64,000 nucleotides of DNA from a virus. The notes beneath the pieces are model-generated. The model did no database searches and was not told the origin of the DNA. It worked only from the letters and a program-made list of their open reading frames with translations. This document shows positions 35,678 to 55,342 of this stretch, piece by piece; within the stretch, counting starts at the first letter, position 1; each line of letters begins with the position of its first letter. A program made the position numbers and the translations under genes. The stretch spans positions 108,111 through 172,110 of IMG/VR virus record IMGVR_UViG_3300035070_002905; one strand, given 5' to 3'.

Positions 35678-37804
35678 TTATCCCTCGTGTGCGATTAAGT
35701 TTTGCAGCTCTACGTAGTTCTCTCCGAGATTACGGAAGGTGTTACGAGTAGCTGTCATCAGTGAGTTAAGTGCATCGGCATCGATCTGCTCTGCCAGCTT
35801 AGCACTGTTAAGGCGCATAAGGAACAGTGAACGTCCCAGCTTGTCGATTGCATCCTTGATATCAGGTAGATACTCTTGGATTGCTCCGTGCATATCCGGG
35901 TTATGGAGCATCTCGGTAATCAGAGTAGCCTCCATAGCCTGACGGTCAGCCGAAGCTGCAGCATTCTCTACCTTACCTGGCATGCCCTCGTTACGTTGGC
36001 GTGCGGTACCGGTAATCTGCTTATCATTAGGAAGTTTCTCACCGTACTCAACCATAGGAGAGCGCATTGTAGCACCGCCACCAGTGGAAGGACGACCGCC
36101 GCCTCGAGCTGCCTCTTTATTCATACCGAAGAACGCGTCCATCTCCTTAGCGGCTGCATCTTTCAGCATACCTACTGCGCGATCTTCTGCGGTACCCGTC
36201 AGCTGCTCGGTCTGACCCTTCCCGCGGACTGCGGTATGAGTAGCTCCTAGAGCTGAAGCGGATGTAGGTGCAGGGATGTTTCCGTAACGTGGGAATGGCG
36301 CCGGTTTAGCGTTACGAGAATCCTGACCACCTGAACCGGTACGTGCGTTGGCTTGCTTGCTCATACGGATATTAACCGTACCCTGCTCTTCAGCCTTCTT
36401 AACGAAAGTCTCAACGGTCGGTACGTCCATCGACCAGGTTACCAGGCCGTGTGTGATCATCTGAGGTTTACCGCCTACTACCTGACCGTCTACTGCATAT
36501 TGACCATCACGGTGCTGTAGAGTAGATGCGTAAGGGAGTGCGCGTGCCTCGTTGATCTCATGGATCATCTGTGCCTTATTGATATCAGTCATGATTTCAA
36601 CAGGTGCTTCAGATAGTGGAACGAATGTAGCATCCTCTGGAATAAGGTGCATACCTTTAGACTTGCAGTAGCGCTTGATAGATGGATGAGTCTTGAAGTA
36701 AGTACAACCACCATCGCCTAGTACCTTGAAGCAAGTCCAATCGCCTTCTTTGTATACTTCAGCCACTGTACCGGCCTCTGCATATCCTTCAGGAGTAGCG
36801 AACATACCATAGTCTTTCTGCTTGACGGCTACTAGAGCCTTGGCGCCAAGCTCTTCGAGTGCCGATTCATAGCTGACCGGACGCTCGTATACTACAGGCT
36901 TCTGCTTACACGTCATGCTAACCATCTGGCCTTTAGTAGTAACTACCAGAGGACCTTCGCCGATAGGAGCATTCGTACCGCGACCCAGTCGCTTATTAAG
37001 TAGAAGGGCATCGCCGTCCTGATTAGACTCAAGACGCTTAAGACATACCACGCTGATATCTTGTCCGGCCATAGTAAGACCGTTGTAGGCCTCGCCAGGT
37101 TGCAGGGAGTTAGCCTGAACGAATGCGTCTACACCACCGGCTTCTACAGCTACGATGGTTGACTTAGGTGCGTTCTTAACGGTGTAGCCTTTACTTAGTA
37201 CTTCCTGAACCTGCTCTTCGCTAAGTCCACCGGCCTGAGTGACAACCTCTGGCATTGGACCTACCGGTGCACGGTATTCAGGCTTCGGACGATTAATCGC
37301 CTCGATTAGAACCTCTACATCCATTACTGGATTGATGTGGTTAGCGCACTTCTGAATCATCGCCGCCATACCTTCACGCAACTCGTTAGGAAGCTGAGCT
37401 GCAAGTTCATGTACACGGGACTCGCCTGCGTATACGTACTTACCAGTCTTAGGTGGAACGATGGCATCATATAGATCAGGATCTCGAGCCACGTGGCCTG
37501 GAACCTTCTCGCCCTGACCGAGGAACGGGTCCTTCTCCATCAGCCATTCGACTGACTTCTTGGTTAGCGGGATGAATACCTTAGCTTCGGCGTCGAAGAT
37601 CGACTCCATAGGCTGTACGGTATCACCCTTAGCAATAACAGGTACGTAGTAGTACTTGTTATTCATATCGATAATGAACATACCGATCTGAATGCCATTG
37701 TTTTCAGGCAACTCCTCGGTCATGTCCTTGAAAGCTGCGACGTAGCGTCCCAGTTCCGGGGCTTGACGTTGAAGCTGGTTCATCGCCTGCTTAGAATAGT
37801 CCAT
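35678..37804 (-). CDS. Large putative internal head protein (708 aa)
   Basis: YSKQA, FVKKA, MSKQA, MNKEA motifs; located in head module. Confidence 0.55.
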   Translation of the reverse strand: MDYSKQAMNQLQRQAPELGRYVAAFKDMTEELPENNGIQIGMFIIDMNNKYYYVPVIAKGDTVQPMESIFDAEAKVFIPLTKKSVEWLMEKDPFLGQGEKVPGHVARDPDLYDAIVPPKTGKYVYAGESRVHELAAQLPNELREGMAAMIQKCANHINPVMDVEVLIEAINRPKPEYRAPVGPMPEVVTQAGGLSEEQVQEVLSKGYTVKNAPKSTIVAVEAGGVDAFVQANSLQPGEAYNGLTMAGQDISVVCLKRLESNQDGDALLLNKRLGRGTNAPIGEGPLVVTTKGQMVSMTCKQKPVVYERPVSYESALEELGAKALVAVKQKDYGMFATPEGYAEAGTVAEVYKEGDWTCFKVLGDGGCTYFKTHPSIKRYCKSKGMHLIPEDATFVPLSEAPVEIMTDINKAQMIHEINEARALPYASTLQHRDGQYAVDGQVVGGKPQMITHGLVTWSMDVPTVETFVKKAEEQGTVNIRMSKQANARTGSGGQDSRNAKPAPFPRYGNIPAPTSASALGATHTAVRGKGQTEQLTGTAEDRAVGMLKDAAAKEMDAFFGMNKEAARGGGRPSTGGGATMRSPMVEYGEKLPNDKQITGTARQRNEGMPGKVENAAASADRQAMEATLITEMLHNPDMHGAIQEYLPDIKDAIDKLGRSLFLMRLNSAKLAEQIDADALNSLMTATRNTFRNLGENYVELQNLIAHEG

Positions 37805-37815
37805 TTATATACTCC

Positions 37816-39645
37816 TTAATATCTGCCGCCTTTGCCATCGCCGAAGTTTCCGCCCATGACGTATGCTGCAATTGGATCAGTAGATGAGATTTCAGATTCG
37901 CGGCCCATGACTACAGATTCTTTCAGGTTACGTACCTGATTACCAGTAGCAAGACGAGAGATCCAGTTTTCATCTAGATGTTTAACTGAGTTTAGACCAG
38001 GTACGAGAGGCTTAACGGATAGATTAGTCTTACTGACTTTAACCTTATCAACGCCTTTAAGCTCTAGCTCGTCTATGTGGTTTTGATCTAGCACAGTACC
38101 AGGAGTCATATATAAGACACCGTGTGATAGCATGCGACCTAGCGCAGCACTCAACGGTAGCTCTTCGACGTCCTCTTGAAGTTCTTTTTGTAGAACGTTA
38201 ACGTTAACCTTCTGGCCTGGCAGGTATCCAGTATCTCCTGGATTCTCTACTAGGACATGCTTAACCATGTTCTTAGCGATCAGATCATAGTGACGCGTGT
38301 CGAGTTTATTACCTGCACCCTCGTAGATTTCACGTAGGGTATTAGTAATGTGCTTACGACCGGCGCCGGTTCCGCGTAGTTCTACTAGTTCACGAGGGTT
38401 AATCGTACCGGTAGATAGAGCGTCGCCTTGCTTGACCTGTTGACCCATCTTAACTAGAACTTCCTGCTCACGAGGAACGAAGTGTTCTTGGCCGTTGATA
38501 TAGATCTTGTGTGCATTCAGAGAGGTACGCAGAATCTCATCTACCTTACCGTTAAGGCTAGCGATGGTCGCCTTCTCTTTGAATGTACTAGGGTTAGCTA
38601 GTAGGTTACTTACTTGATCGAATGGGCTGGCACGTTTACCGGCTTTCGAGTCATGCTTCGTAGATAGGATCATCTGGGTCAATACCTCAGATGCCGATTG
38701 AGCTGCCAGTACGCCTACGTTCTCGCCTACATCTGGAACCTTAGCACGTGAATCCATGCCGTAACACTTCTGGCATACTCCGTCAGGAGCCTCACAGGTC
38801 AGCGTAGAGCGGACGGTGATGTTAGTCTTACCAGAGCTCTTAAGTTCCTTCCAGTACTCCTCGTCGATTAGATGATTAGTACCCGCCTCATAGCGGTGCA
38901 TGATCTTACCCTTGTCGCTAACCTTAGCAGAGTCACCGTTCTTAGTCCCGCAGTCGGGCTCGGTGATTACTTCATGGTATACGTTAGGAGTGATCTGCTT
39001 AAACATCGCACCAGGTTTACTAGTAGATAGCTGTGCAGATACCGTGTTACCACGACCCCAATATGACATCGCTAGTTGCTCTGCAGGACTAAGGCCCTCA
39101 GCGTACGAGCTAGTAATGGCTACAGGGATTGGCGTGCCGTCGATTCTCTTAGAGATCAGCGGTGAGCTTGTCGCCTGTTGTAATTGGTTCGGGTTACCAC
39201 GAGCCTTGGTCTTAGCCATGATCGCCGCGGTAGAGTTACGGTCTACTAGGTAGTTAAGGTTTTGATCAACCATCTTAGGCTGATACTTGTTTGTCATGTC
39301 GTTGATCATATCGTTCTTCTGCTGCTGACTTAAGTCGCCGCGAAGGTTGATCTGATCGATCTTACCTTTGAACTCTTGAAGCATCGTCTTGCGATCTTCC
39401 GAGTCATTGTAGTAATCTGCTAGTGGAGTAGAATAGCCATTAGCTGTAGCCTGACCGAAGAACTCGTTACTAAGATTAGTAATAGTATCTCCAGCTTCGC
39501 TGCCGCCGTAGGTAATAACCTTATGCATAAGGTCGTTTACTCCGCCTTTATCCAAGTGTCGAGTCACATCGTAATGCTCTTTGACGCCACTAGGAAGCAT
39601 CTTTTTTATTTTCAGCGCTCCCGCTGCGAAGACTGGTTCCGTCAC
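37816..39645 (-). CDS. rpoC: DNA-directed RNA polymerase beta-prime C-terminal half (RpoC2-like)
   Basis: ARGNPNQLQQ, SY.EGL, VITEPDCGT, RSTLTC...GVCQKCYG, GENVGVLAAQS.SE.LTQM.L.TKH (trigger loop). Confidence 0.92.
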   Translation of the reverse strand: MTEPVFAAGALKIKKMLPSGVKEHYDVTRHLDKGGVNDLMHKVITYGGSEAGDTITNLSNEFFGQATANGYSTPLADYYNDSEDRKTMLQEFKGKIDQINLRGDLSQQQKNDMINDMTNKYQPKMVDQNLNYLVDRNSTAAIMAKTKARGNPNQLQQATSSPLISKRIDGTPIPVAITSSYAEGLSPAEQLAMSYWGRGNTVSAQLSTSKPGAMFKQITPNVYHEVITEPDCGTKNGDSAKVSDKGKIMHRYEAGTNHLIDEEYWKELKSSGKTNITVRSTLTCEAPDGVCQKCYGMDSRAKVPDVGENVGVLAAQSASEVLTQMILSTKHDSKAGKRASPFDQVSNLLANPSTFKEKATIASLNGKVDEILRTSLNAHKIYINGQEHFVPREQEVLVKMGQQVKQGDALSTGTINPRELVELRGTGAGRKHITNTLREIYEGAGNKLDTRHYDLIAKNMVKHVLVENPGDTGYLPGQKVNVNVLQKELQEDVEELPLSAALGRMLSHGVLYMTPGTVLDQNHIDELELKGVDKVKVSKTNLSVKPLVPGLNSVKHLDENWISRLATGNQVRNLKESVVMGRESEISSTDPIAAYVMGGNFGDGKGGRY

Positions 39646-39871
39646 GCTTGCTCCTTATATCTCTGCCGATCTCTGCTAGTGTAGCCGAGCGCGGTGCTTT
39701 GATAGGTTCATAAGAAATTGGTTTGCCATCCCTGGCTACATAGGCCCTAGAGTCACCTTTCTTCGTATCCACAGAGTTCTGGCTCTGCTTCATAGGCATC
39801 TGGGCTGGGGTTTTAACTTTAGGTGTTTGGACTTTTGGGTTGCCCGCCCGCACCTTCTGTACTAGATCCAC
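39590..39871 (-). CDS. Small basic hypothetical protein
   Basis: AAGGAG + GTG start; overlaps both neighbours. Confidence 0.45.
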   Translation of the reverse strand: MDLVQKVRAGNPKVQTPKVKTPAQMPMKQSQNSVDTKKGDSRAYVARDGKPISYEPIKAPRSATLAEIGRDIRSKRDGTSLRSGSAENKKDAS

Positions 39872-40058
39872 TCTTCAGCTCCTTAGCCTTACGGTATAGT
39901 TTCGTCTTCAGGTATCTCTTCAAGCCTCGTTTGGTAGCTCCTTCAGAACCGATGGCTCTAATGGCTGCCTTAGGGACATCAACTGTCATCTTAGGAGGAT
40001 CGATGGTGACTTCCTCTGCCTGCTTAAACAGTCTAGCCTGCTCGGTAAGTGTACACAT
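39819..40058 (-). CDS. Small basic hypothetical protein with LFKQA motif
   Basis: GGGAG RBS; first gene after TAAAATA. Confidence 0.55.
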   Translation of the reverse strand: MCTLTEQARLFKQAEEVTIDPPKMTVDVPKAAIRAIGSEGATKRGLKRYLKTKLYRKAKELKSGSSTEGAGGQPKSPNT

Positions 40059-40085
40059 TTAATTTCTCCCATAGTTTACTAAGTA

Positions 40086-40092
40086 TATTTTA
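40086..40092 (-). promoter_or_regulatory. Putative late promoter TAAAATA
   Basis: Immediately downstream of a terminator. Confidence 0.65.
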
Positions 40093-40124
40093 AAGAAAAG
40101 GCGCCCCGAAGGACGCCTCTTTTT
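40092..40124. terminator. Intrinsic terminator (UUCG loop on minus strand)
   Basis: AGGCGTCC-TTCG-GGGCGCCTTTTCTTT. Confidence 0.8.
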
Positions 40125-40263
40125 ATCTACGTGCTGTCTGTGCCTTATCTACCGGAGTCTCACGCTCTGGTATAATAGGACTCTTTGACTTGGCCTTACC
40201 GATATTATTAGCGGCATTAGTAGAGGCGATAGCCCTCGCCTCCTCTACTAGTGGTCTCTTCAC
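40123..40263 (-). CDS. Possible 46-aa peptide coupled to RNAP stop (not in ORF track)
   Basis: GTGA start/stop overlap; frame fills the gap exactly up to the terminator; weak RBS. Confidence 0.35.
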   Translation of the reverse strand: MKRPLVEEARAIASTNAANNIGKAKSKSPIIPERETPVDKAQTARR

Positions 40264-43200
40264 TTCTTACGGATTCGGATAGGAGTGTTCTCTGAGATCT
40301 GTCCAGATTCCAGTGCAGCCATAGCCGCCTGTTCACTGTCGAAACTCATAGTCTCCTGCTCCATGTCCGGACTAGTCAAGTAAGATGATCCTAAGATCGC
40401 CTCGTGACCCGGTGCGTACATCGGAGAGCCATGCCCCATACGAGCATCGTGTAGATGGTTCTCAGGGAGTAGCTTATCCTTAGCCTCTTGAATTGCTTCA
40501 GGAGTCACCGGAGCGAACATCGACATTGCATCACCATCGTAATCGGCCGCGAAGCCAGGTAGATGGAGGATGTTCATACCGATTGTCTTACCGCTTGTCG
40601 GTACCGCTTTAAGCGCTAGGATATTCGTCTTCATCAATGTAGGTGCACGGTTGAGAATCACCGGTACTTCCTGACACATCTTGTTGAACGAAGCGCCTGC
40701 CGCCTGGTTGCGAGTCTCGTAAGCCTCTTTAGCCGATGCTGCATCGTAACCCTTCTGAGCCAGGTCACGCTTGATGTGCATCTCGTACATAGTCCATAGC
40801 TGCTCTTTAGGGATCTTAGCCTCGTTGAAGCCTACATCCGGAGCTGCGTAGATCGTACCACGACCAGAGATGTCCTGCTTCTTACTCAGAAGCTTGCTCT
40901 GGAAGAGACCGGTCTTAGGACCGCCTTCACCACCAATCTGCTTAAGCAAACCTTTAAGGCCCTGCTGCTTATGCTTATAGTTAGCCGGATCGCCTGCCGC
41001 CATGATAGCCTTAAGACCCTGATAGGTCTCAGAACGAACATCCTGCAGTGGCTGATACTCAGGTGTAACGATGTCTTTCAACTCGCCAACCTTCTCGTTA
41101 CTGATGAACGCATCTTTATACAGAGAGTTAACGTCTGCTACCGAAGCACGTCCACCCGTTACCGATACTGGACGCATCACTGGTGGAATGATCGGAATGT
41201 TACGTAGCATTACCGCTTTAGAGGGATCGTCGTAACCCTGCTTGTTAAGACCGTGTAGGTACTTCAACTTCTTAATCGCCTGGTCTTTCTTACTACGTGA
41301 AGTAATAGAGTGTACCTGACCTTTAAGATAGTCTACCTCGGCAGTCGTATCGATGTCCGCTAGCATTTGACTGAATGCCTCGCCGCCTACGATCATCTCA
41401 CCGTTCTCAGCCTGCTTAGTGAAGTCAGGGATAGAGCTAACGTTTACCTGACGAACAACCTCTTCGCTATCAGAATCGATCAAGTCGAATATACCAGTAG
41501 CCTTGCGCTTAACGCCAAACTTACCAGAGATCAGACCGTCGTATTCCTTCTGCTTAAGATCGAGCATTGAACGTACAGGATCCTCGAAGACTGGGTTAAC
41601 TGTAGGCTCTGCCAGCTTCATATGAGACCACTTCTGACCGTCAGGTCCACCGGTGATACTCGTATCGAATAGGCCGCCCTTCTCAGGACGTGCATCCTTA
41701 CCGTAAACCATCTTAGCATTCTGGATCTCTCCGTTAGAACGTTTAAGGATTGACTCATCGGTCAGAGGAGAAAGACTAAGCTTACCGTTACGGTGACTCA
41801 CGTCGATGCCTGAACCTACTAGGTAATCGAAGAACTTGTTCGTAGCGAATGTAGTCTTAGGCTTCGGAAGCGGTAGACCTCGTACGTACTTGTCCCAGTA
41901 TTCATTCTGATCTGTTAGCGCGCCACCTTCAGATTTAATGGTACCGATTTCCTTCAGGTTCTTACGAGCGTTCGAGCCTAGTAAGCCTAGGAACTCCATG
42001 TAACCTACTGATTTAGCACCTTCTTCACCACCTTTAGTTGGCTGACCGACGTTATCGTAGCCGCCTACCGAACGAGCCGAGTAGTTAGCGTCAACCGTCT
42101 TGTCTAGCTTAAGGATGTACTGTGGTCCAGCTAGTACGTTAGCACCGATAGTCTTACCGGTCTGCGGATCGTAGATCTCCTCGGTATCGCTCAGGCCATG
42201 CTTGGCAAGGTCATCACGAATCTTCGCAAGGTTATCCTTCTCACCGTAGTTCTGTACCATGTACGGCTGTCCGGTCTTCTTAGCGATCTTACTAGCTGCA
42301 GTCTCAAGGACCTGGCCTAGGTTGATACGCGAAGTTACCGACGCAGGGTTAAGTAGAAGGTCTACTGCTTTACCAGTCTCCTTACTATGTGGCATCTCGT
42401 GATCGTCTAGGATCAGCGATACAACACCCTTGTTGCCGTGCAGTCCAGTAATCTTATCACCCATCTCAAGGTTCTTCTCAGAACGAATGATTACGCGGAT
42501 ATTCTTACCAGAGTGGTCTACATCTACAATCTCTCCAGCCTCGTGGTGATCCCATACAATCGAAGCATCACGATACGGACTTACCAGAGTCTTATGCAGA
42601 CGTCCCAGTACTTTATCCGTATCAGACTGTTGGCGCTCCTCCATGATAGGCCAGATTAGATCGCCATGACTTAGCTTACGGCCTTTAGTAGGCTTGCCGT
42701 CCATTGCGAATCCATTAAGCTGTTCAGGCTTGTACTTACGACCGAAGTTCGCACGGAACTTAGCGGCATCTAGTACTGTTTCTTTACCGGTCTGGTAGTC
42801 AAACTTATAGCAGTGGTTACTGGTCATAGACTCGGCAGCCGACTTACTGATGATGATACCATCCTCGTGGTTAAAGCCTTTGTACGGGATGTATGCTGCG
42901 TGCAGGTTCTTACCTAGAGCAAGACTTCCGTCTTTAGTATAGTTATTATCTGCTACTACATCGCCAGGTTTAACTCGATCGCCGATCTGTAGATGACTCT
43001 CAGAGTCATCGTGGAAGCCCTTCATGTTAAACGGCATGTTATCTACCAGCTTAATCGTATGGTCTTCCTTAGTACCATCCTCGCGGATTGTAATCGACTT
43101 AGGAGTCTTACCGACTACCGTGCCTTCTACTGGGCTCTGACTTGAGAATACTCCAGCCATACGAGTGCCGTAAGAAGTACCAGTATGATCGACCGTCTGT

Positions 43201-44822
43201 ACTAGCGGCTGCTCACGTTCCTTCAGGCTTAGAGACTGAGGGATTGCCTTACCTGCCATCGTTAGACGACCGGGGTGGTTACTGTTAAAGAACGGCACAA
43301 GGTTAGTCGTTACCGTGTACATATCAGAACCTGCTGGAATCCAGTAGTCTACCTGTGCACGAGGCACCTCGGCGAACTTACCGTTACGCTGGGCCTGTAC
43401 TGTAGGAGCATCAGACTTAAGGCCGTCCGAGAAGCCTACCGTAGAGTTCATCATCTCGTTAGACGATAGGTAGTGTTCGACACCCTTACTATCTAGTACA
43501 CGAGCGTACATGTTACCCTCTTCATCACGACGTGAAGTCATGGTGAAACGCTGGTCGATACCAGCCATGCCAGATTCCGGTGTACGTGATGGATCAAGGA
43601 TACCTAGATGCGAAGGATCGACGTTACGAGCCTCGTCTGGAACACCTTGAGCCGATGCGATACCGCCGTAGCCCTGACCTAGGATTGTAGCCTTACCAAC
43701 GTTCTCAATGCTCTCTACCGGGTTTGTTTCCGTCGGTGTTGATGCCAGTGAGCTGTTGATGATGAAATTAGTGTATACCTTGTTAAAAGGCTTGGCTCCA
43801 AGTACTCCTCGAATCTTAGGGTTATTCTTGTCCACGCGGCCAAGAGCACGCTGTACATTCTTGAGGGTACCTGTAACATTCGCATTACCTTTACTGAAGT
43901 GGCTGCCGATGAAGTCCGGAAGGTTCTGCACCTTCTTGAACTGCAGGCTATCACGGTTATCTTCCTGACGTTCACCACGGCTGATATCAACCAGGTTCTT
44001 ACAGGCACGCATGATGGTCTCTGCCTCTACATGGCCGAACGACTTACCTAGGGTAGTCTCGGTAGTAGATGCATCAAGGCTAGAGCTCTCTAAGGCCTCG
44101 CGAAGGATACGAGCCTTCTCGTCGACCGGTAGACTCTTATCCTGCAGACGCTTGTTAACCATCTTACCGTATAGGTTAGTGATTACCTTGTTCTCCATAC
44201 CCTTAGATGCTTTGATGTTAACTGTAAGCAGGTCCTGAGGAATGAAGCGCGACATGTCTGCAAGGTTCATCTTGAAGACTTCAGTCAGTACTGGGATTAG
44301 CGGTACGCCGGCAGACTTAGCGCCACCTGCACGTACGTTGAAGACCTCTGTTTCAGGGTCTAGAACGATACTAAAATTCGCACCCGAGCCGGTGTTAAAG
44401 GAGGATTCCAGTTCGTCGTTATCGCGAGAGCGAGTATATACTCCAGGCTTAAGCACAATGAGGTTAGCGACATTGTAGTTGTTCCCTCTATAGATTGCAG
44501 TATGCTTACCCGTCATAGAGTAAGTGTCTGCTAGTTGAAAGTTCTTCACGGTATCGACGAGATCGCCGGTCTTCTTATCGTACATCTTAACGGTACCCTT
44601 AACCGGGTACGTTAGAGATTTACCTTTAAGAATTGCCTGCTTCTCATCCTCGTGGTCGAAGTGCTTCTTGTCTGCGTAGACATCTTCCACTTCGATTCGG
44701 TAATTGTTATCCTCAATAGGAAACGTTGAAGAAATCCCTTTGATCATCGCGTTGTCAGTCTTCTCATTGATATCATGAGGGGATGTAAACAGCGGGATTA
44801 GTTCATCAGCCTTCTTTGGCAT
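40260..44822 (-). CDS. rpoBC: DNA-directed RNA polymerase: beta fused to N-terminal half of beta-prime (1520 aa)
   Basis: Beta motifs TPES, GFNHEDG, GDK..GLHGNKGV, LNP..V.SRINLGQ, YILKL; beta-prime motifs GLF, IPP.MRP, SGR, LNRAPTL and catalytic ADYDGD. Confidence 0.93.
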   Translation of the reverse strand: MPKKADELIPLFTSPHDINEKTDNAMIKGISSTFPIEDNNYRIEVEDVYADKKHFDHEDEKQAILKGKSLTYPVKGTVKMYDKKTGDLVDTVKNFQLADTYSMTGKHTAIYRGNNYNVANLIVLKPGVYTRSRDNDELESSFNTGSGANFSIVLDPETEVFNVRAGGAKSAGVPLIPVLTEVFKMNLADMSRFIPQDLLTVNIKASKGMENKVITNLYGKMVNKRLQDKSLPVDEKARILREALESSSLDASTTETTLGKSFGHVEAETIMRACKNLVDISRGERQEDNRDSLQFKKVQNLPDFIGSHFSKGNANVTGTLKNVQRALGRVDKNNPKIRGVLGAKPFNKVYTNFIINSSLASTPTETNPVESIENVGKATILGQGYGGIASAQGVPDEARNVDPSHLGILDPSRTPESGMAGIDQRFTMTSRRDEEGNMYARVLDSKGVEHYLSSNEMMNSTVGFSDGLKSDAPTVQAQRNGKFAEVPRAQVDYWIPAGSDMYTVTTNLVPFFNSNHPGRLTMAGKAIPQSLSLKEREQPLVQTVDHTGTSYGTRMAGVFSSQSPVEGTVVGKTPKSITIREDGTKEDHTIKLVDNMPFNMKGFHDDSESHLQIGDRVKPGDVVADNNYTKDGSLALGKNLHAAYIPYKGFNHEDGIIISKSAAESMTSNHCYKFDYQTGKETVLDAAKFRANFGRKYKPEQLNGFAMDGKPTKGRKLSHGDLIWPIMEERQQSDTDKVLGRLHKTLVSPYRDASIVWDHHEAGEIVDVDHSGKNIRVIIRSEKNLEMGDKITGLHGNKGVVSLILDDHEMPHSKETGKAVDLLLNPASVTSRINLGQVLETAASKIAKKTGQPYMVQNYGEKDNLAKIRDDLAKHGLSDTEEIYDPQTGKTIGANVLAGPQYILKLDKTVDANYSARSVGGYDNVGQPTKGGEEGAKSVGYMEFLGLLGSNARKNLKEIGTIKSEGGALTDQNEYWDKYVRGLPLPKPKTTFATNKFFDYLVGSGIDVSHRNGKLSLSPLTDESILKRSNGEIQNAKMVYGKDARPEKGGLFDTSITGGPDGQKWSHMKLAEPTVNPVFEDPVRSMLDLKQKEYDGLISGKFGVKRKATGIFDLIDSDSEEVVRQVNVSSIPDFTKQAENGEMIVGGEAFSQMLADIDTTAEVDYLKGQVHSITSRSKKDQAIKKLKYLHGLNKQGYDDPSKAVMLRNIPIIPPVMRPVSVTGGRASVADVNSLYKDAFISNEKVGELKDIVTPEYQPLQDVRSETYQGLKAIMAAGDPANYKHKQQGLKGLLKQIGGEGGPKTGLFQSKLLSKKQDISGRGTIYAAPDVGFNEAKIPKEQLWTMYEMHIKRDLAQKGYDAASAKEAYETRNQAAGASFNKMCQEVPVILNRAPTLMKTNILALKAVPTSGKTIGMNILHLPGFAADYDGDAMSMFAPVTPEAIQEAKDKLLPENHLHDARMGHGSPMYAPGHEAILGSSYLTSPDMEQETMSFDSEQAAMAALESGQISENTPIRIRKK

Positions 44823-44823
44823 C

Positions 44824-45123
44824 TTACTCTCCTTGACGTTCTAAATATGTAACTACTACTGTATAAACTCCAGTCGCCGTACTAATAGAATCCTTACGCT
44901 CCAAGATCATTACCTCCTGGTCTGCACTGACCGAGCGGTTAAGCAGGGTCTCGTACGCAGTGATATCGTCGCTTCCCTCGGCACTGTTAGACAGCGTGAA
45001 GAAACCGATACGATATCGGTAGTTAGTCAGGTCTGGACCGCCTTGATTATTAGCCGGCAGCATCTCTGGAGATGCAGGCCCTTGGTTTTTCTCATTAAAC
45101 AGATCCATTACGTGACTCCTCAA
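44824..45123 (-). CDS. Hypothetical protein between portal and RNAP
   Basis: Co-oriented and tightly packed; start may be the MDLF ATG at 45108. Confidence 0.55.
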   Translation of the reverse strand: MRSHVMDLFNEKNQGPASPEMLPANNQGGPDLTNYRYRIGFFTLSNSAEGSDDITAYETLLNRSVSADQEVMILERKDSISTATGVYTVVVTYLERQGE

Positions 45124-46918
45124 AGATTCTCTGTTGTGCCGTACGTGAGCGACGGCGTGTTGGTTTTGGTTTCGGTGCTACCGATGCGGCCTTCTGCATA
45201 CCGGCCTGAGGATCTTCCTCTACCTCGTCTGCTCCGCCCATGTATTGCTGGATGATAGTCATAACGTGGTCGTACTTCGCCTCGTCTTCGGCCTGTAGGG
45301 CCATAACCATTTCCATACGTTTCTGTTCGTCAGGCTCTTGAAGAATCGCCTGCGCTTTAGTCATGACATCTTGACGGTAATCGTTATAGCCGGACTCGTC
45401 CTCGCCATCAGATACCTCGTCTTTGTGAGCCATGTAGACTGCCTGTTCCATCTTGTACTTCATGCGTACTGATTCTTCAGCCTTATCGATCTGCTCTTGG
45501 ACAATCTTCTCGCTCTCCTTCTCGGGATCGATGTCGCATGTCTCGAGCAGGGTCTTGCCGCTGATTAGGCTAGCCTGATGTAGCTGTAGGTACATGTTCT
45601 TCAGTGCATCGTTATCGGTCAACTGGTATGGCACCAGGCTAACATCGGCTTCTTCTAGGCCTAGGTAGTTAGCGATCTGATCGACGATCCAAGTAAGATA
45701 GCGTTTAATCTTACGGTTGTACTGGTTCATGTTGTTCTCTAGTAGACGTAGGCCTACCGTAGAGCTCGTCCAGTTAGTCGTACCGCTCAATAGCTCACGG
45801 CTCACGCCCATTGCCATTAGCAGCTGCTCTTCAGCGAATTGCAGTTCCTGTGTAACCAGTAGAGATTTACCCTGACCGCCTACGTAAGCTGTACCGATCG
45901 GCACTGGACTTAGTAGTACATGGTTAGGATCCTGCTTGAATCGCTGCAGGCTTGACTTCACGTTAGTCGTGAAGTTATTCATACTCATCATCGATACCGG
46001 GTCGCCGGCAGAAGAACTCTGTTGCGGGTACAATACGCGCATCGGGTTCATATGCTCCAGGGCAATCGCCTCGTTAGCCTTCTTCAGACACTGCATGTAG
46101 AATACAGTCGAGTAGTGAGATAGTAGCGGCGGAACACCGAATCCCTCGATGAAGTCACCCATTGTAAGGCTCTTCATGTGGTGGATGGCGCCAGGCGCAA
46201 ACTTAAATTCTTTCTGTGTGCGTACAGCCTCTACGAATTCCCATGGTACAGTCGTCAGGAAGTGCGGGTCACCGATTAGGATCTTACGCTTGACGTCGCC
46301 AGGGATGTTGTAGAAGTACTCTGTATCGCCGGTAATAGGGTTATCATTGATGGAGATGTTATCCGGCTTCCACTTAATGATATTGATACGGTTTACATCT
46401 TTACTCTTCGTATCGATGCGCTTGTATATTACCTTCTGTGAACATCCAGGACATTCTCCACTGAACTGAAACTTCTTCCAGATCGCGTACTTGCCGTCCA
46501 GCGCCTTGCGGCTGTTGTAGCTAGTCTTACACGAAGGGCACTCTAGCATACGATCGATAGGAAAGTAGATAGAGGTGAAGCTGTTTCCGTAAGCATGGTA
46601 ATCGAAGCCACCGTCTGACATCTTCTCGATTAGCTTAACCGATTCGAATATCTCTTCGTACTTCTCACGGAGTTGTTTCTTCGGAGAACTCACGGTTACT
46701 TCAGTGATCGGATAGGTCGCTAGCTTACGTAGTACCTCAGCACTAGTAGGAGACTTAACGATGATGAATCGCGTCCACTTAAGAAGGTCGTGAAAACTAC
46801 GCGGGAGGAACTGACTGGATACGTCGTACGCAGGGTTCGCGTAAGTACCTAAGTCATATCGTCCGTAGTAGCCACCAGGTGTAATTGTTGGGCTAGTCCC
46901 AATCTGACCAATAGCCAT
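45095..46918 (-). CDS. Portal protein (with CxxC...CxxC insertion)
   Basis: 607 aa; first gene of head operon; DY..YGNSF, HH.K......FGVPPL, GVSRELL.G pattern; acidic C-terminus. Confidence 0.7.
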   Translation of the reverse strand: MAIGQIGTSPTITPGGYYGRYDLGTYANPAYDVSSQFLPRSFHDLLKWTRFIIVKSPTSAEVLRKLATYPITEVTVSSPKKQLREKYEEIFESVKLIEKMSDGGFDYHAYGNSFTSIYFPIDRMLECPSCKTSYNSRKALDGKYAIWKKFQFSGECPGCSQKVIYKRIDTKSKDVNRINIIKWKPDNISINDNPITGDTEYFYNIPGDVKRKILIGDPHFLTTVPWEFVEAVRTQKEFKFAPGAIHHMKSLTMGDFIEGFGVPPLLSHYSTVFYMQCLKKANEAIALEHMNPMRVLYPQQSSSAGDPVSMMSMNNFTTNVKSSLQRFKQDPNHVLLSPVPIGTAYVGGQGKSLLVTQELQFAEEQLLMAMGVSRELLSGTTNWTSSTVGLRLLENNMNQYNRKIKRYLTWIVDQIANYLGLEEADVSLVPYQLTDNDALKNMYLQLHQASLISGKTLLETCDIDPEKESEKIVQEQIDKAEESVRMKYKMEQAVYMAHKDEVSDGEDESGYNDYRQDVMTKAQAILQEPDEQKRMEMVMALQAEDEAKYDHVMTIIQQYMGGADEVEEDPQAGMQKAASVAPKPKPTRRRSRTAQQRIFEESRNGSV

Positions 46919-46963: not shown

Positions 46964-46970
46964 TATTTTA
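46964..46970 (-). promoter_or_regulatory. Putative late promoter TAAAATA for portal/RNAP operon
   Basis: At the divergence point, about 45 bp upstream of the portal ATG. Confidence 0.65.
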
Positions 46971-51225: not shown

Positions 51226-52123
51226 CTTGTCGGATGCGTACAGCGGCTTGGCTATCGCCGGTACTGACTACTTCAGATAGAGTAATCGATCCGGCTGCTG
51301 CATCTGCCGTCCAGTCAAACTGGTTGACACCTTGCAGGAATACTTCGATACTACCTGGATCGGTAAGATCGATAGGGTCTGCTCCGCCACCTACTTGGAT
51401 TGGCACGTTGCTAGAGCCTGCAGGTACGGTAACGATCTGCGTATTGTACTTCACGGTAGACTGTCCGATATCAGCAGCCTGAACGGTAGTCTTCATGTTA
51501 TACAGAGCGATGGTCGCATCGTCTAGGCTAGCCGCACCGAAAGGTACAGTTACCGCCATAAGGATGATCGTATTGCCATCTAGCGCAGGTGGAATCGGTG
51601 GAGTGCCTACTGCATGATATGTAGCCTGACTAGCAATCTCTGCAACCCATACCGGCGAGTTAGCCGTAGGTACGAAGTCAGATGCTGTAGGTGCACGGCG
51701 TGTAGCTAGTACGAAGTACGTAGCATCCTGTGCGTTACTCGGAGGCGGAATCATTTGGAATGTATCTGCCTGATCGTGTACTGCCAGATTAGGTACATCG
51801 ATACCGCGGGCGCCGTCTAGGATCAACCAAGTACCGAAGCCGTAAGCATGAGTCAGCGAGAAGCCTACGTAAGAGTAGTCGCCGATGTACGAACCAGGAC
51901 CGTATAGAGAGTTGCCTGCACCGGTAAGTGCGTAACCTGCAGAAGCAGCTGCCAGAGCAGAACGGTTTGCACCGCCGGTAAAATCATCTACTGCCTGTGC
52001 GACTAACTGTACGTTATTGTCTAGGTTTTGTAGAGGACGGTTATCAACCGTATAGTAGTAAGGGTCCAGAGCGGTGTAGTATTCTACAGCCTCTAGATCC
52101 TCAAAAACTTTTGTATTTGCCAT
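51206..52123 (-). CDS. Virion structural protein (isolated late gene)
   Basis: AAAGGA RBS before MANTK; YYTVDNRPL.NL..N N-terminus; C-terminal VFLQGV.Q..W...GSITL module; TAAAATA upstream. Confidence 0.6.
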   Translation of the reverse strand: MANTKVFEDLEAVEYYTALDPYYYTVDNRPLQNLDNNVQLVAQAVDDFTGGANRSALAAASAGYALTGAGNSLYGPGSYIGDYSYVGFSLTHAYGFGTWLILDGARGIDVPNLAVHDQADTFQMIPPPSNAQDATYFVLATRRAPTASDFVPTANSPVWVAEIASQATYHAVGTPPIPPALDGNTIILMAVTVPFGAASLDDATIALYNMKTTVQAADIGQSTVKYNTQIVTVPAGSSNVPIQVGGGADPIDLTDPGSIEVFLQGVNQFDWTADAAAGSITLSEVVSTGDSQAAVRIRQATLSLR

Positions 52124-52156
52124 TAGGAATTTTCCTTTTGTGTGAACGTTCAAGGA

Positions 52157-52163
52157 TATTTTA
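52157..52163 (-). promoter_or_regulatory. Putative late promoter TAAAATA
   Basis: About 34 bp upstream of the MANTK start. Confidence 0.6.
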
Positions 52164-52164
52164 C

Positions 52165-54018
52165 ATGGAAATAAAAGGATTTAACGAGGACTACTTCAGT
52201 ATAGTCCCAGAGGGAGCTACCGAAAGTAACGCTTTAAAGCGATTCCCAGGCTTCCTACGTTCCAGAGGAAACTTCTTATTCCCCAAGAAGCCTACTCAGG
52301 TACGTAATATTATAGAGCGTCTGAAGAGATCTTATAAGAAGCCGATCGATTGTACCAAAGAGTTAGTCGATTGCATGCGCACCGAAGAAAAGCTAAAAGA
52401 AATCCCCGAGGGTTTTCCATGGATAAACAAACCGTATCCACACCAGGAGCTGGCACTCAGGTTCCTCTATACCCACGGCTCTGCCGGATTGCTTCTAGAG
52501 CCTGGGCTCGGTAAGACGTTCGTAGTACTGAACTACATCTACCTGATGAAGTTCAAGAAGAGCATCATCGTGTGTCCTAAGGCTCTCTGCTTTGTATGGG
52601 AGGATGAGGTAGCCGAGCACCGTCCGGAACTCTCGGTACACGTAATGGAGTCGACGACATGGGAGAGTAAGATAGCGAATGCCGAGGCACGTGCCGTTAA
52701 GTGGCGTGAGAAGCTCGCTGAGGCCGAGGAAGGCACTAAGGCATACAATCAGGCGCGTACAAATGTACGTTCGGCAGAGCGCGATCTAGAGCGTCTCCCG
52801 GGCATGCGTGATGCTGATTACGAGAAGGCCGATGCTGCAGATGTAGTCGTAATGAATTACGAGAAGGCAGTACCGGGATTGGATTGGGCGCTTAAGCAGA
52901 AGTTTGATTTCATTGCAGTTGACGAGGGACTGATAAAAGATCCTTCTACTAAGCGTACTAAAGCCATCGAGAAACTCGGTCAGTCTATTCCACACCGTAC
53001 GATCATGTCGGGTACCCTCATTAACAATAGTCCGTTAGACATCTTTGCACCGGTACGATTCCTCGCCCCGGCTCTGGTTAGTACGGCCTACGGTAGGTTC
53101 GAACACTACTACGCTAAGATGGCTAAGCTACGTGATGGACGTCAGTTCGTCGCCGGAGTCAGCCGGGTTAACACCGATGAGATCCGTGATATACTAGCGG
53201 CGTGCTCTATCGTGATGACTAAGGATGAGTGGCTGGACCTACCCGAGAAGAATTTCCATACGATTCAAGTACCTATGACCGAACCTCAACGTAATATCTA
53301 CGAGGACCTGGCGGCTAACTTAATCGCTAAGGTCGGAGATGACTTCATCGAGGTAGACAGTCCGCTGACCCTGGCCGGTAAACTGAACCAGATCAGTAAT
53401 GGCTTTGCCTATATGTACGAGCAAGAGGAAGACGATTGGTTCGCCATGGCGGTTCCCGAGAGTAAGGGTACTCGTGAGACGGTCTGGATTGATAGCAATA
53501 AGAAGGATGCATTGAAGAGCCTGCTAGAGGACGATTGTAAGGGCAAGAAGTTAATCCTCTGGTACAATCTTACAGCCGAGTACAATCAGATTGTAGATGC
53601 ACTCGAGGAGATGGGTATAGAATACCTAGCTATTAAAGGAGGTAGTAAGGATACCGGCGGTACAGTCCGTAAGTTCAACGGCTCGGGTACTCATCAGGTC
53701 TTAGTCTGTCAGAGTCAGGCGGTTAACTATGGTATCACGGTACTAGGTAAGGATCCGGACTCACTGGATAAAGACGTTCCGCTCCTGCCTGACTTCGATA
53801 CTCGATGTCATACGCAGATCTTCTGGTCTATCTCGTGGTCGCTGGAGAGATTCCTACAGCAGCAGGACAGGATACATCGTATCGGTCAGCAGGAAGACTG
53901 TGACTACTATGTGCTACTTACTGAGGGTAGTATAGAGGAGGGGATTTACGAGCGGCTAGGCGAAAAGAAAGAGATCAATGAAGCTATCCTGGTTGATATC
54001 ATAAAGTCAATTTCGTAG
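52165..54018 (+). CDS. SNF2/SF2-family helicase
   Basis: PYPHQ, LEPGLGKT, IIVCPK, AVDEG, MSGT, GIT, QQQDRIHRIGQ; AAGGA RBS before ATG 52165. Confidence 0.9.
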   Translation: MEIKGFNEDYFSIVPEGATESNALKRFPGFLRSRGNFLFPKKPTQVRNIIERLKRSYKKPIDCTKELVDCMRTEEKLKEIPEGFPWINKPYPHQELALRFLYTHGSAGLLLEPGLGKTFVVLNYIYLMKFKKSIIVCPKALCFVWEDEVAEHRPELSVHVMESTTWESKIANAEARAVKWREKLAEAEEGTKAYNQARTNVRSAERDLERLPGMRDADYEKADAADVVVMNYEKAVPGLDWALKQKFDFIAVDEGLIKDPSTKRTKAIEKLGQSIPHRTIMSGTLINNSPLDIFAPVRFLAPALVSTAYGRFEHYYAKMAKLRDGRQFVAGVSRVNTDEIRDILAACSIVMTKDEWLDLPEKNFHTIQVPMTEPQRNIYEDLAANLIAKVGDDFIEVDSPLTLAGKLNQISNGFAYMYEQEEDDWFAMAVPESKGTRETVWIDSNKKDALKSLLEDDCKGKKLILWYNLTAEYNQIVDALEEMGIEYLAIKGGSKDTGGTVRKFNGSGTHQVLVCQSQAVNYGITVLGKDPDSLDKDVPLLPDFDTRCHTQIFWSISWSLERFLQQQDRIHRIGQQEDCDYYVLLTEGSIEEGIYERLGEKKEINEAILVDIIKSIS

Positions 54019-54571: not shown

Positions 54572-55342
54572 CTAAACCAGTTCGTCCTGTAAGACCTCGA
54601 ACGCACGATCTTTAAGATCCTTCAAGTATTGGCGAGTAAGCTCCGGCTTCTCGTCAATAATTTGAGCGTAAGATTTCTTTTTTCCATCATCCGTAAGACC
54701 GTAGAGATCCTTAATGATTTCTGCCTCATCTCCAAAGGTATCTACTACATCGTACATACGATCAAGTAGAATCTCATAGTCAGCCTGACCCATCCCATCG
54801 ATGACCGGAATGTCATCCTCGTTTACACAGTCAAGGTAGAACGTTAGGAATGCCGTTTGACTCAGTTCGTTAAGATCCTTCTTGCTAGCATCCGGAAACT
54901 CTGCCTGTAGTTGAGCCATCGTAGGCTCGCGACCTAACTCCTCTTTGAACTTACGGATCTTAACAGATAGCTGCTGCTTCTGTGTCGGTAGGGCTACCAG
55001 ACGGAATTCACTCATAGCTTTCATCTGGCGCTGGTACACCCACCAGCCTGCGTACGTTAGGAAGCGCATGCCGGTAGAGTTATCAAACTTGTCCAGGCCT
55101 ACTAGAAGTCCCTCGTTACCTGCAGAGATCAGTTCGATGAACTGTTCGATATCACCGTTGCTCAATTTTTTAGCCTGCTTAAAGACGAAGCGTAGGTTGC
55201 TCGCGATTAACTGGCTCTTGGCACGTGCTCGATCGATCGACGGTGCGTCCTCATCGAAAAAGATATCTAAGAGTGCAGCCTCTTCTTCTTTCGATAGGAT
55301 TGGATGCTCGCAGATCTCAGAGTAGTACTTGCTTAGGTCCAT
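54572..55342 (-). CDS. Sigma70-family RNA polymerase sigma factor
   Basis: Region 1.2 (Y..EI...PILS.EEE); region 2 (LI.SNLRFV...AKK, LI..GN.GL...DKFD...G.RF.TYA.WW); region 3 (LGREPT); divergent region 4. Confidence 0.92.
   Translation of the reverse strand: MDLSKYYSEICEHPILSKEEEAALLDIFFDEDAPSIDRARAKSQLIASNLRFVFKQAKKLSNGDIEQFIELISAGNEGLLVGLDKFDNSTGMRFLTYAGWWVYQRQMKAMSEFRLVALPTQKQQLSVKIRKFKEELGREPTMAQLQAEFPDASKKDLNELSQTAFLTFYLDCVNEDDIPVIDGMGQADYEILLDRMYDVVDTFGDEAEIIKDLYGLTDDGKKKSYAQIIDEKPELTRQYLKDLKDRAFEVLQDELV

Follow-up and report, generated by a model that had tools for sequence, protein, structure and literature searches.

A phage RNA polymerase of bacterial type with beta fused to the N-terminal part of beta-prime and a separate beta-prime-C chain

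A two-gene polymerase core

The DNA analysed here is a stretch of 64,000 nucleotides (nt), hereafter the window, which forms the final 64 kb of a 172,110-bp virus record of IMG/VR (IMGVR_UViG_3300035070_002905) with an estimated completeness of 95%. On its minus strand, two genes were identified that, judged from sequence and alignment, encode the catalytic core of a bacterial-type phage RNA polymerase as two polypeptides. The longer gene carries a whole beta subunit which continues without a stop into the N-terminal part of beta-prime (beta-prime-N), and the shorter gene carries the C-terminal part (beta-prime-C). Phage-encoded bacterial-type RNA polymerases are already known; the fused architecture is what is new. 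An original prediction, made from the letters of the window alone, had described this architecture as unusual; the architecture was confirmed, but it is not unique, as the enzyme belongs with many others to a large clade of phages. The parts of the two genes are listed below in window coordinates, with protein lengths in amino acids (aa).

41808..44822, minus strand: beta part of the fused chain, residues 1-1005 (Pfam Rpb2_6, E 5e-56)
40260..41807, minus strand: beta-prime-N part of the fused chain, residues 1006-1520, stop included (Pfam Rpb1_1, Rpb1_2)
40530..40550, minus strand: catalytic magnesium-binding motif AADYDGD, residues 1425-1431 (alignment with Salmonella RpoC)
37816..39645, minus strand: beta-prime-C chain, 609 aa, with the bridge helix, second zinc site and trigger loop (Pfam Rpb1_5, E 4e-19)

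The open reading frames (ORFs) of 1520 aa and 609 aa were recovered exactly as originally claimed, both in their coordinates and in their Pfam content. The 1520-aa ORF (40260..44822, minus strand) runs through the whole of beta and then through beta-prime up to and past the catalytic AADYDGD, and matched Rpb2_6 at residues 627-931, Rpb1_1 at 1014-1254 and Rpb1_2 at 1381-1448. The passage from beta into beta-prime had been placed at about 41790; alignment with Salmonella RpoB and RpoC located it close by, at residue 1005/1006 (nt 41807), and revealed no linker. The sequence ..FFDYLVGSG aligned with the C-terminal end of RpoB and was followed directly by IDVSHRNGKLSLSPL.., which aligned with the N-terminal end of RpoC.

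Beta forms a single uninterrupted segment of ∼1005 residues. Its active-site lysines (GDK..GNKG) and the NHEDG motif were intact in the alignment with Salmonella RpoB, where LEMGDKITGLHGNKG and KGFNHEDG were seen, while residues of the rifampicin pocket were altered. The lineage-specific inserts of Escherichia coli (E. coli) were missing from the phage chains when these were aligned with Salmonella RpoB and RpoC, and the N-terminal zinc-binding domain of beta-prime (E. coli 68-99) was deleted in the fused chain. The chain terminates past the catalytic barrel, at a position equivalent to ∼E. coli beta-prime 551. As had been proposed, fusion and split are thus combined in one enzyme, with both double-psi barrels in the 1520-aa chain. 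The three aspartates of the DxDGD triad (D422, D424, D426) were invariant across 50 homologues; basal full-fusion relatives read NADFDGD at this motif, compared with AADYDGD in the window.

The bridge helix, second zinc site and trigger loop had been assigned to the separate 609-aa gene, and alignment with Salmonella RpoC bore this out. The four-cysteine zinc site (C..C..C..C) and the bridge helix were located in this chain, and its trigger loop reads TQMILSTKH, in which the histidine is retained and the arginine substituted. Rpb1_5 covers residues 184-474, and the chain also supplies C-terminal parts of the clamp. The chain begins at ∼E. coli beta-prime 571, and its gene starts with a GTG codon with AAGGAG in front.

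The bacterial-like character of the enzyme, also part of the original prediction, was supported by sequence matches to PDB entries, the best of which were bacterial beta (E 6e-59) and beta-prime (1e-39 for the fused chain and 9e-44 for the 609-aa chain). An AlphaFold2 model of residues 560-1520, built on a 50-row alignment, had a mean predicted local distance difference test (pLDDT) of 86.7 and a predicted template modelling score of 0.73. The junction was folded confidently in this model, with pLDDT blocks of 84-93, and the top Foldseek matches of the model were bacterial beta and beta-prime/gamma chains.

Integrity of the fused reading frame

The check set beforehand against an assembly artefact gave a clear answer: no stop was present at the junction, and nt 41807 was bridged by Logan contigs from four public runs, two of which may be the same data set filed twice. 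Two runs held ∼92%-identical relatives that were continuous over 40133-42399, with 1-nt indels in compensating pairs. A megablast of the region against phage records gave no match, and relatives were found at the protein level only. At that level, the fused ORF was common to Salmonella phage Arash (gp206, 56% identity) and to Vibrio phages D69, D181 and D148 (73%), and the open frame across the junction was kept in more than 200 homologues with identities of 30-72%. Peptide coverage of Arash gp206 is 100% (PMC10585845). An artefact of assembly or gene calling, or a decaying pseudogene, would have to be reconciled with the bridged junction, with hundreds of homologues that keep the frame, with invariant catalytic residues and with the full peptide coverage in Arash. 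Nothing was found in its favour; we give this explanation practically no chance and regard it as refuted.

Distribution of the fusion and origin of the beta-prime split

An exhaustive, profile-free homologue search with residues 880-1520 as the query returned at least 150 representatives, all at E<1e-86, and each full-length one was a beta fused to beta-prime-N. When this search was pooled with a second one, 268 homologues were obtained, most of which fell into three types. Type A, to which the window enzyme belongs, ends after the catalytic barrel (119/268). Type B is a complete beta/beta-prime fusion of ∼2000-2600 aa (52/268), and type C consists of beta with only ∼120 residues of beta-prime (48/268); the others were fragments or intein-bearing forms. 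In the contig P0251, the only type C context looked at, separate genes of 384 aa and 608 aa follow the fused gene, with three ORFs in the first gap. This third architecture was also seen in the loci L024, L025, L032 and L047 and forms a sub-lineage.

A census of IMG/VR was made on 80 sampled viral contigs of up to 219 kb with an alignment as the query, a single-protein query having given one locus. Beta was fused to beta-prime in 77 of the 80 loci, comprising 37 full fusions, 36 of type A and four of type C; in the type A loci, beta-prime-C mostly lay 0.7-4 kb downstream. Separate beta and beta-prime ORFs occurred in only two loci (L074, L084). The script assigned no class to one further locus (L028), yet this locus holds a 2009-aa ORF that contains beta and beta-prime-N. 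The window shares the features of this clade, namely the beta/beta-prime fusion, the deleted zinc-binding domain of beta-prime and the position of the polymerase gene downstream of a portal gene. Our literature search, which covered few subscription journals, found no paper in which the fused architecture or the clade is described. The phage lineage with a fused polymerase is large and, in the literature searched, not described.

The phylogeny called for by the original prediction was built for the phage relatives together with bacterial RpoB. The maximum-likelihood tree of the beta part (84 rows, 982 columns, LG+G4) was rooted on three bacterial RpoB sequences and omitted L074/L084 as well as the phiKZ-type sequences, for which long-branch artefacts were expected. 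The fused-polymerase family was monophyletic with a support of 100. Type B was paraphyletic at the base, and the 49 split forms made up a nested clade (support 100) with type C placed inside type A. The window grouped with D69, P0155 and P0158, again with a support of 100.

The break point could be read from the alignment. Full-fusion relatives are continuous through ..VRVAG-KNT-SAGRAL.., while the window has ..IRIRKK followed by a stop in the first chain and VTEPVFAAGALK.. in the second. Because full fusions are basal on the bacteria-rooted tree and the linker is continuous in the single-chain relatives, the sequences identify the beta-prime split, given the bacterial root, as a secondary fission of a single-chain ancestor within a short linker. 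A recent capture of a bacterial rpoBC gene was considered and rejected: no protein of Helicobacter size (∼2900 aa) occurred among the top 150 matches, and a long branch separates the clade from the three bacterial outgroups.

Mobile elements were a recurrent feature of these genes. Size variants of ∼1800 aa and ∼2500 aa carry LAGLIDADG inteins, and in P0008, P0048 and P0068 their insertion sites are the beta barrel and the position just behind the catalytic DxDGD of beta-prime. In D181 (L009 3033-3313), D148 and the IMG/VR relative L008, the beta part is interrupted near codon 515, inside the conserved HPGRLTMAGK, by a group I intron (RF00028, 100.7 bits) that comes with a gene for a homing endonuclease. 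Since mobile elements are so frequent in these polymerase genes, it is plausible that their insertion drove the fission. An intron-bearing phage record annotates the polymerase exons as separate hypothetical proteins. As a separate observation, a TubZ-like tubulin gene was located 7 kb from a single-chain polymerase (L019 2003-3202; 159-kb contig, P0052), a hint that certain clade members use a cytoskeletal protein to organise the cell that they infect.

Subunit inventory

The original prediction had seen no alpha or omega subunit in the window, and this absence holds across the 172-kb genome: profile searches for alpha (PF01000, PF01193) and omega (PF01192) gave no match at E ≤ 10, while the same searches were positive in 14/14 control genomes. 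A single polymerase set was found, with one match each to PF00562 and PF00623 and both PF04998 matches inside the 609-aa ORF. A phmmer --max search of the genome found no significant paralogue of the core chains, with only a 236-aa ORF at E 0.002. This ORF lies in the baseplate region (genome 81679-82389, minus strand; L021 3680-4390) and contains a free-standing copy of the module that forms the second zinc site of beta-prime (TExDC ... C..GxCxxC), 29% identical over 90 aa to the beta-prime-C of the window (pairwise E 1e-6).

Two sigma-70-family genes were present.

54572..55342, minus strand: sigma-70-family factor, 256 aa, candidate specificity subunit (PF04542, E 5e-8; phrog_351, E 3e-20)
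genome 78468..79157 (L021 469-1158), minus strand: second sigma-like gene, 229 aa, Sigma70_r3, in the structural region (homologue of Arash gp10, E 2e-58)

The window sigma, which carries Sigma70_r2, is 48% identical to Arash gp196, and TGTTATAAG stands 38 nt 5' of its gene. In the contig P0023, the most basal full fusion examined, a sigma gene is located near the polymerase, and in a large protein collection sigma homologues were found on contigs equal in size to those with polymerase homologues. We infer that the phage sigma pairs with the phage polymerase. A complex prediction of beta-prime-N with the window sigma scored 0.01; controls were not run, and this result is no evidence either way. 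The 99-aa ORF upstream of the polymerase gene was considered as a possible omega-like subunit. Its conservation would fit, but the Arash homologue, gp205, is missing from the virion list, in which the polymerase had the most spectra.

Genomic context

The region between the two polymerase genes and the gene that follows them contained the following features.

40091..40125, minus strand: intrinsic-terminator-like hairpin with a U tract, 3' of the fused gene (folding)
40086..40092, minus strand: second TAAAATA motif, 28 nt 5' of the 79-aa ORF that leads to beta-prime-C (motif scan)
39819..40058, minus strand: 79-aa ORF, weakly conserved (sole weak relative in L008, E 2e-5)
39590..39871, minus strand: 93-aa basic ORF, overlapping the start of beta-prime-C, conserved among close relatives
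35678..37804, minus strand: 708-aa conserved neighbour directly after beta-prime-C (homologues in D69, 43%, and Arash)

A terminator, a new promoter motif and two small ORFs had been predicted between the genes, and all were found: after the stop of the fused gene come a GC-rich hairpin, TAAAATA, the 79-aa ORF, the 93-aa ORF and beta-prime-C. The hairpin at 40091-40125 was not picked up by a scan for consensus terminators and promoters; it was identified by folding, with an energy of -18.2 kcal/mol and a z score of -3.96, which 0/200 shuffles equalled. In one public run, a ∼92%-identical relative carries 1555 extra nt exactly at this inter-gene terminator (window 40092-40133). The 93-aa ORF has 72% identity over 46 aa in D69 and D181, and 58% in L008. 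The 99-, 93- and 79-aa ORFs, as well as the 708-aa and a 334-aa neighbour, gave no Pfam or PHROG match, and an Atlas search with the 708-aa protein gave no usable match. The Arash homologue of the 708-aa protein is annotated as 'structural protein', and partial homologues were located 3' of beta-prime-C in six IMG/VR loci.

Upstream of the polymerase, the following elements were mapped.

46964..46970, minus strand: TAAAATA late-type promoter-like motif, 46 nt 5' of the portal gene, heading the portal/99-aa/polymerase block (motif statistics)
45095..46918, minus strand: portal-like protein, 607 aa (phrog_16240 portal, E 7e-9)
44824..45123, minus strand: conserved 99-aa ORF between portal and polymerase (homologue of Arash gp205, E 2e-15)
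46999, 47057, 54027, 55388 and 55811 in the window, and four sites elsewhere in the genome: intergenic TGTTATAA[GT], resembling an extended -10 element

The polymerase genes are flanked by the portal-like gene, which holds the position of Arash gp204 ('portal protein'), and by a prohead-protease-like gene. The 99-aa ORF was conserved in L001, L002, L008, L009, L022 and L023. In 42/80 IMG/VR loci, many of them full-fusion, and also in Arash, D69, P0007 and P0251, the polymerase gene is preceded by a portal homologue on its own strand; this synteny persists down to ∼26% portal identity. An SNF2-family helicase gene (PF00176, phrog_62) was found near the polymerase genes at window 51997-54018 (plus strand), and one is near the polymerase in the P0251 contig too. 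A similar SNF2 association in jumbo phages was reportedly noted by Iyer et al. in 2021.

Two promoter-like motifs stood out. TAAAATA occurs in 36 genome copies, 17 of which are intergenic although only 6.9% of the genome is, and each of the 17 is followed by a gene on its own strand at a distance of 6-103 nt. One copy heads the portal/99-aa/polymerase block, and another precedes the small ORFs and beta-prime-C; from this pattern we infer that TAAAATA marks a late promoter class. TGTTATAA[GT] is intergenic in 9/12 copies and stands upstream of small plus-strand genes and of the window sigma gene, and is thus a candidate early promoter class.

Comparison with known polymerases

The closest counterparts are Arash (gp206 and gp216, OQ632216) and the Vibrio phages D69, D181 and D148, which have the same two-chain architecture and the same order of portal, small ORF and polymerase as the window. 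Arash (56% identity) and D69 (73%) also share with it two sigma-like genes and one polymerase set. The two polymerase genes of Arash are separated by 4.8 kb and nine other genes, those of the window by 0.6 kb; the beta part of D181 and D148 holds the group I intron and homing endonuclease, unlike that of the window. The Arash paper annotates gp206 and gp216 as beta and beta-prime and leaves the fusion unremarked (PMC10585845).

The enzymes of phiKZ and AR9 are likewise phage beta/beta-prime homologues without alpha or omega, and their beta-prime is split after the catalytic barrel (PMC7598289, PMC7824862). One of their enzymes is packaged in the virion and injected, which for the window enzyme would be an extrapolation. 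Their beta comes in two to three chains and is never fused to beta-prime, whereas the beta of the window is whole and fused; the split had rightly been called different from the phiKZ-type one. They also have two paralogous sets and no sigma gene, in contrast to the single set and two sigma-70-family genes found here, and their sequences are far more diverged. Because these enzymes work without alpha although they are split (PMC7598289), fusion is not required for alpha independence.

The mReC group shares with the window enzyme its source in metagenomic tailed phages, an alignable bacterial-like beta/beta-prime and structural genes around the polymerase (Weinheimer & Aylward 2020, PMC7481178). 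By its description, it is set apart by separate beta (∼1000-1390 aa) and beta-prime (∼900-1050 aa) subunits and, in some members, by two sets (PMC7481178). To be selected for that group, a phage needed a NADxDGD motif and subunits no shorter than 800 aa each (PMC7481178); an enzyme with an AADYDGD motif and a 609-aa beta-prime-C is therefore excluded by these filters.

Among cellular enzymes, the rpoBC fusions of Helicobacter and Wolbachia resemble the window in that the C-terminus of beta is joined collinearly to the N-terminus of beta-prime, two ends that lie side by side in the clamp. They are cellular, have a full-length beta-prime and work with alpha2 and omega, whereas the window enzyme is viral, has lost the beta-prime zinc-binding domain, has beta-prime split again and comes without alpha or omega genes. 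The whole beta-prime in the same chain, absent in the window, is present in the basal phage relatives. As in the cyanobacterial and plastid split (RpoC1 gamma and RpoC2), the inter-domain region that parts the catalytic barrel from the bridge helix is where beta-prime is divided. The exact position appears to differ: placed indirectly by two alignments, the break of the window lies near the cyanobacterial one but ∼45-65 residues upstream of it. The fused chain ends at gamma ∼558/625 by the PDB alignment, and the break falls between E. coli positions 551 and 571 by the alignment with RpoC. The tree indicates that the two splits are independent in origin. YonO, the crAss-like gp66 and P23-45 gp96/gp64 also hold both barrels in one polypeptide, and some of them are virion-delivered. 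These single-chain viral enzymes have diverged strongly and lack collinearity with beta plus beta-prime (PMC10770324); the fused phage family, in contrast, can be aligned over its whole length to bacterial beta and beta-prime.

Probable packaging and proposed role of the polymerase

We consider it likely that the window encodes a two-chain core, derived by fission, which is made late, packaged, injected and then, with the phage sigmas, starts early transcription independently of the host. The pointers to packaging are indirect, namely the place of the polymerase genes in the head module, the portal synteny and the proteomics of Arash, in whose particle preparations gp206 had the most spectra of all proteins (3516), exceeding the major capsid protein; gp216 had 1210 and the sigma-like gp10 had 467, while gp196 and gp205 were not in the virion protein list (PMC10585845). 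The window polymerase is probably carried inside the virus particle. In the proposed sequence of events, the polymerase core would be made late with the head genes, as the TAAAATA motifs before the portal/99-aa/polymerase block and before beta-prime-C suggest. It would then be packed into the capsid, probably with the gp10-like sigma (genome 78468-79157), and injected with the DNA, where it could begin host-independent early transcription with the packaged sigma-like factor. The second sigma, made early (window 54572-55342), would switch on the late TAAAATA class, the polymerase genes included. As a speculation, the covalent tethering of the two large subunits may replace the assembly role of the alpha dimer, as the original prediction had also suggested.

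Several points weigh against this proposal. The case for packaging depends on a single proteomic study, carried out on a relative with 56% identity. The Arash preparations also held ribonucleotide reductases and RNA ligases, and the authors allow for carry-over of proteins abundant during infection (PMC10585845); because non-structural enzymes were included, the virion evidence from Arash is only moderate. The promoter classes rest on motif statistics and not on mapped 5' ends, and neither sigma is directly linked to the phage polymerase rather than to the host core. The early-class TGTTATAA[GT] looks like the extended -10 element of host sigma-70, so host polymerase could make the early transcripts, and the phage enzyme may use host alpha. 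The tree was a quick LG+G4 search with only three bacterial outgroup sequences, and the genome record is only ∼95% complete.

These points can be arranged into two other accounts. The polymerase might act only inside the cell, for example on middle or late genes, with host polymerase reading the early promoters and the Arash particle signal being carry-over. The resemblance of TGTTATAA[GT] to host extended -10 promoters would fit, as would the many non-structural enzymes in the Arash 'virion' list, a possibility that its authors raise themselves (PMC10585845). We nevertheless hold this account to be unlikely, since the polymerase genes carry the late-type motif only and lie within the head-gene block, late promoters alone could not supply an enzyme that is required before the late genes, the portal-polymerase synteny is kept through the family at portal identities as low as ∼26%, and carry-over sits poorly with gp206 spectra that exceed those of the major capsid protein.

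The other account is a hybrid core, in which a host alpha dimer, possibly with omega, joins the phage chains, and the phage sigmas mainly redirect host polymerase. It draws on a phage genome that has no alpha or omega, on the similarity to bacterial beta and beta-prime, which is high for a phage enzyme, and on the natural bacterial beta/beta-prime fusions, which still use alpha; both the Helicobacter fusions and engineered E. coli beta/beta-prime fusions do so. An injected virion enzyme, however, would need host alpha to be carried along, the hosts of the clade extend from Salmonella to Vibrio, and the phage chains are only ∼25% identical to any host enzyme. Moreover, the phiKZ/AR9 beta/beta-prime homologues function without alpha (PMC7598289). 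We rate the hybrid core as slightly less probable again than an enzyme confined to the cell.

Extended from the window to its relatives, the late-made, packaged and injected polymerase becomes a broader proposal: the polymerase of a widespread lineage of tailed phages, with at least 150 protein clusters at 50% identity, would descend from an ancestral single chain of ∼2000 residues, later broken into two to three genes, perhaps by insertions of mobile elements, and the lineage would use an alpha- and omega-free, sigma-70-dependent and capsid-delivered enzyme. We put this forward tentatively, at somewhat short of an even chance.

Significance

The alpha dimer is generally regarded as the platform on which bacterial RNA polymerase has to be assembled. 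The phiKZ-type enzymes broke this rule, but their divergence and fragmentation hamper comparison with cellular enzymes. The clade described here offers enzymes that can be aligned with bacterial beta and beta-prime, have sigma-70-family partners and come without alpha, omega and the beta-prime zinc-binding domain. Its one-, two- and three-chain forms make up a natural series in which the contributions of tethering, alpha and the zinc domain can be compared, and the clade records gene fission under way, beside introns and inteins. The cultured members, Arash on Salmonella and D69 on Vibrio, make these questions directly testable. For orthogonal transcription, an enzyme that is both single-chain and sigma-dependent would also be a handy tool. 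If the enzyme is indeed free of alpha and omega, uses sigma and is delivered by the capsid, it would be the simplest known self-sufficient sigma-dependent RNA polymerase.

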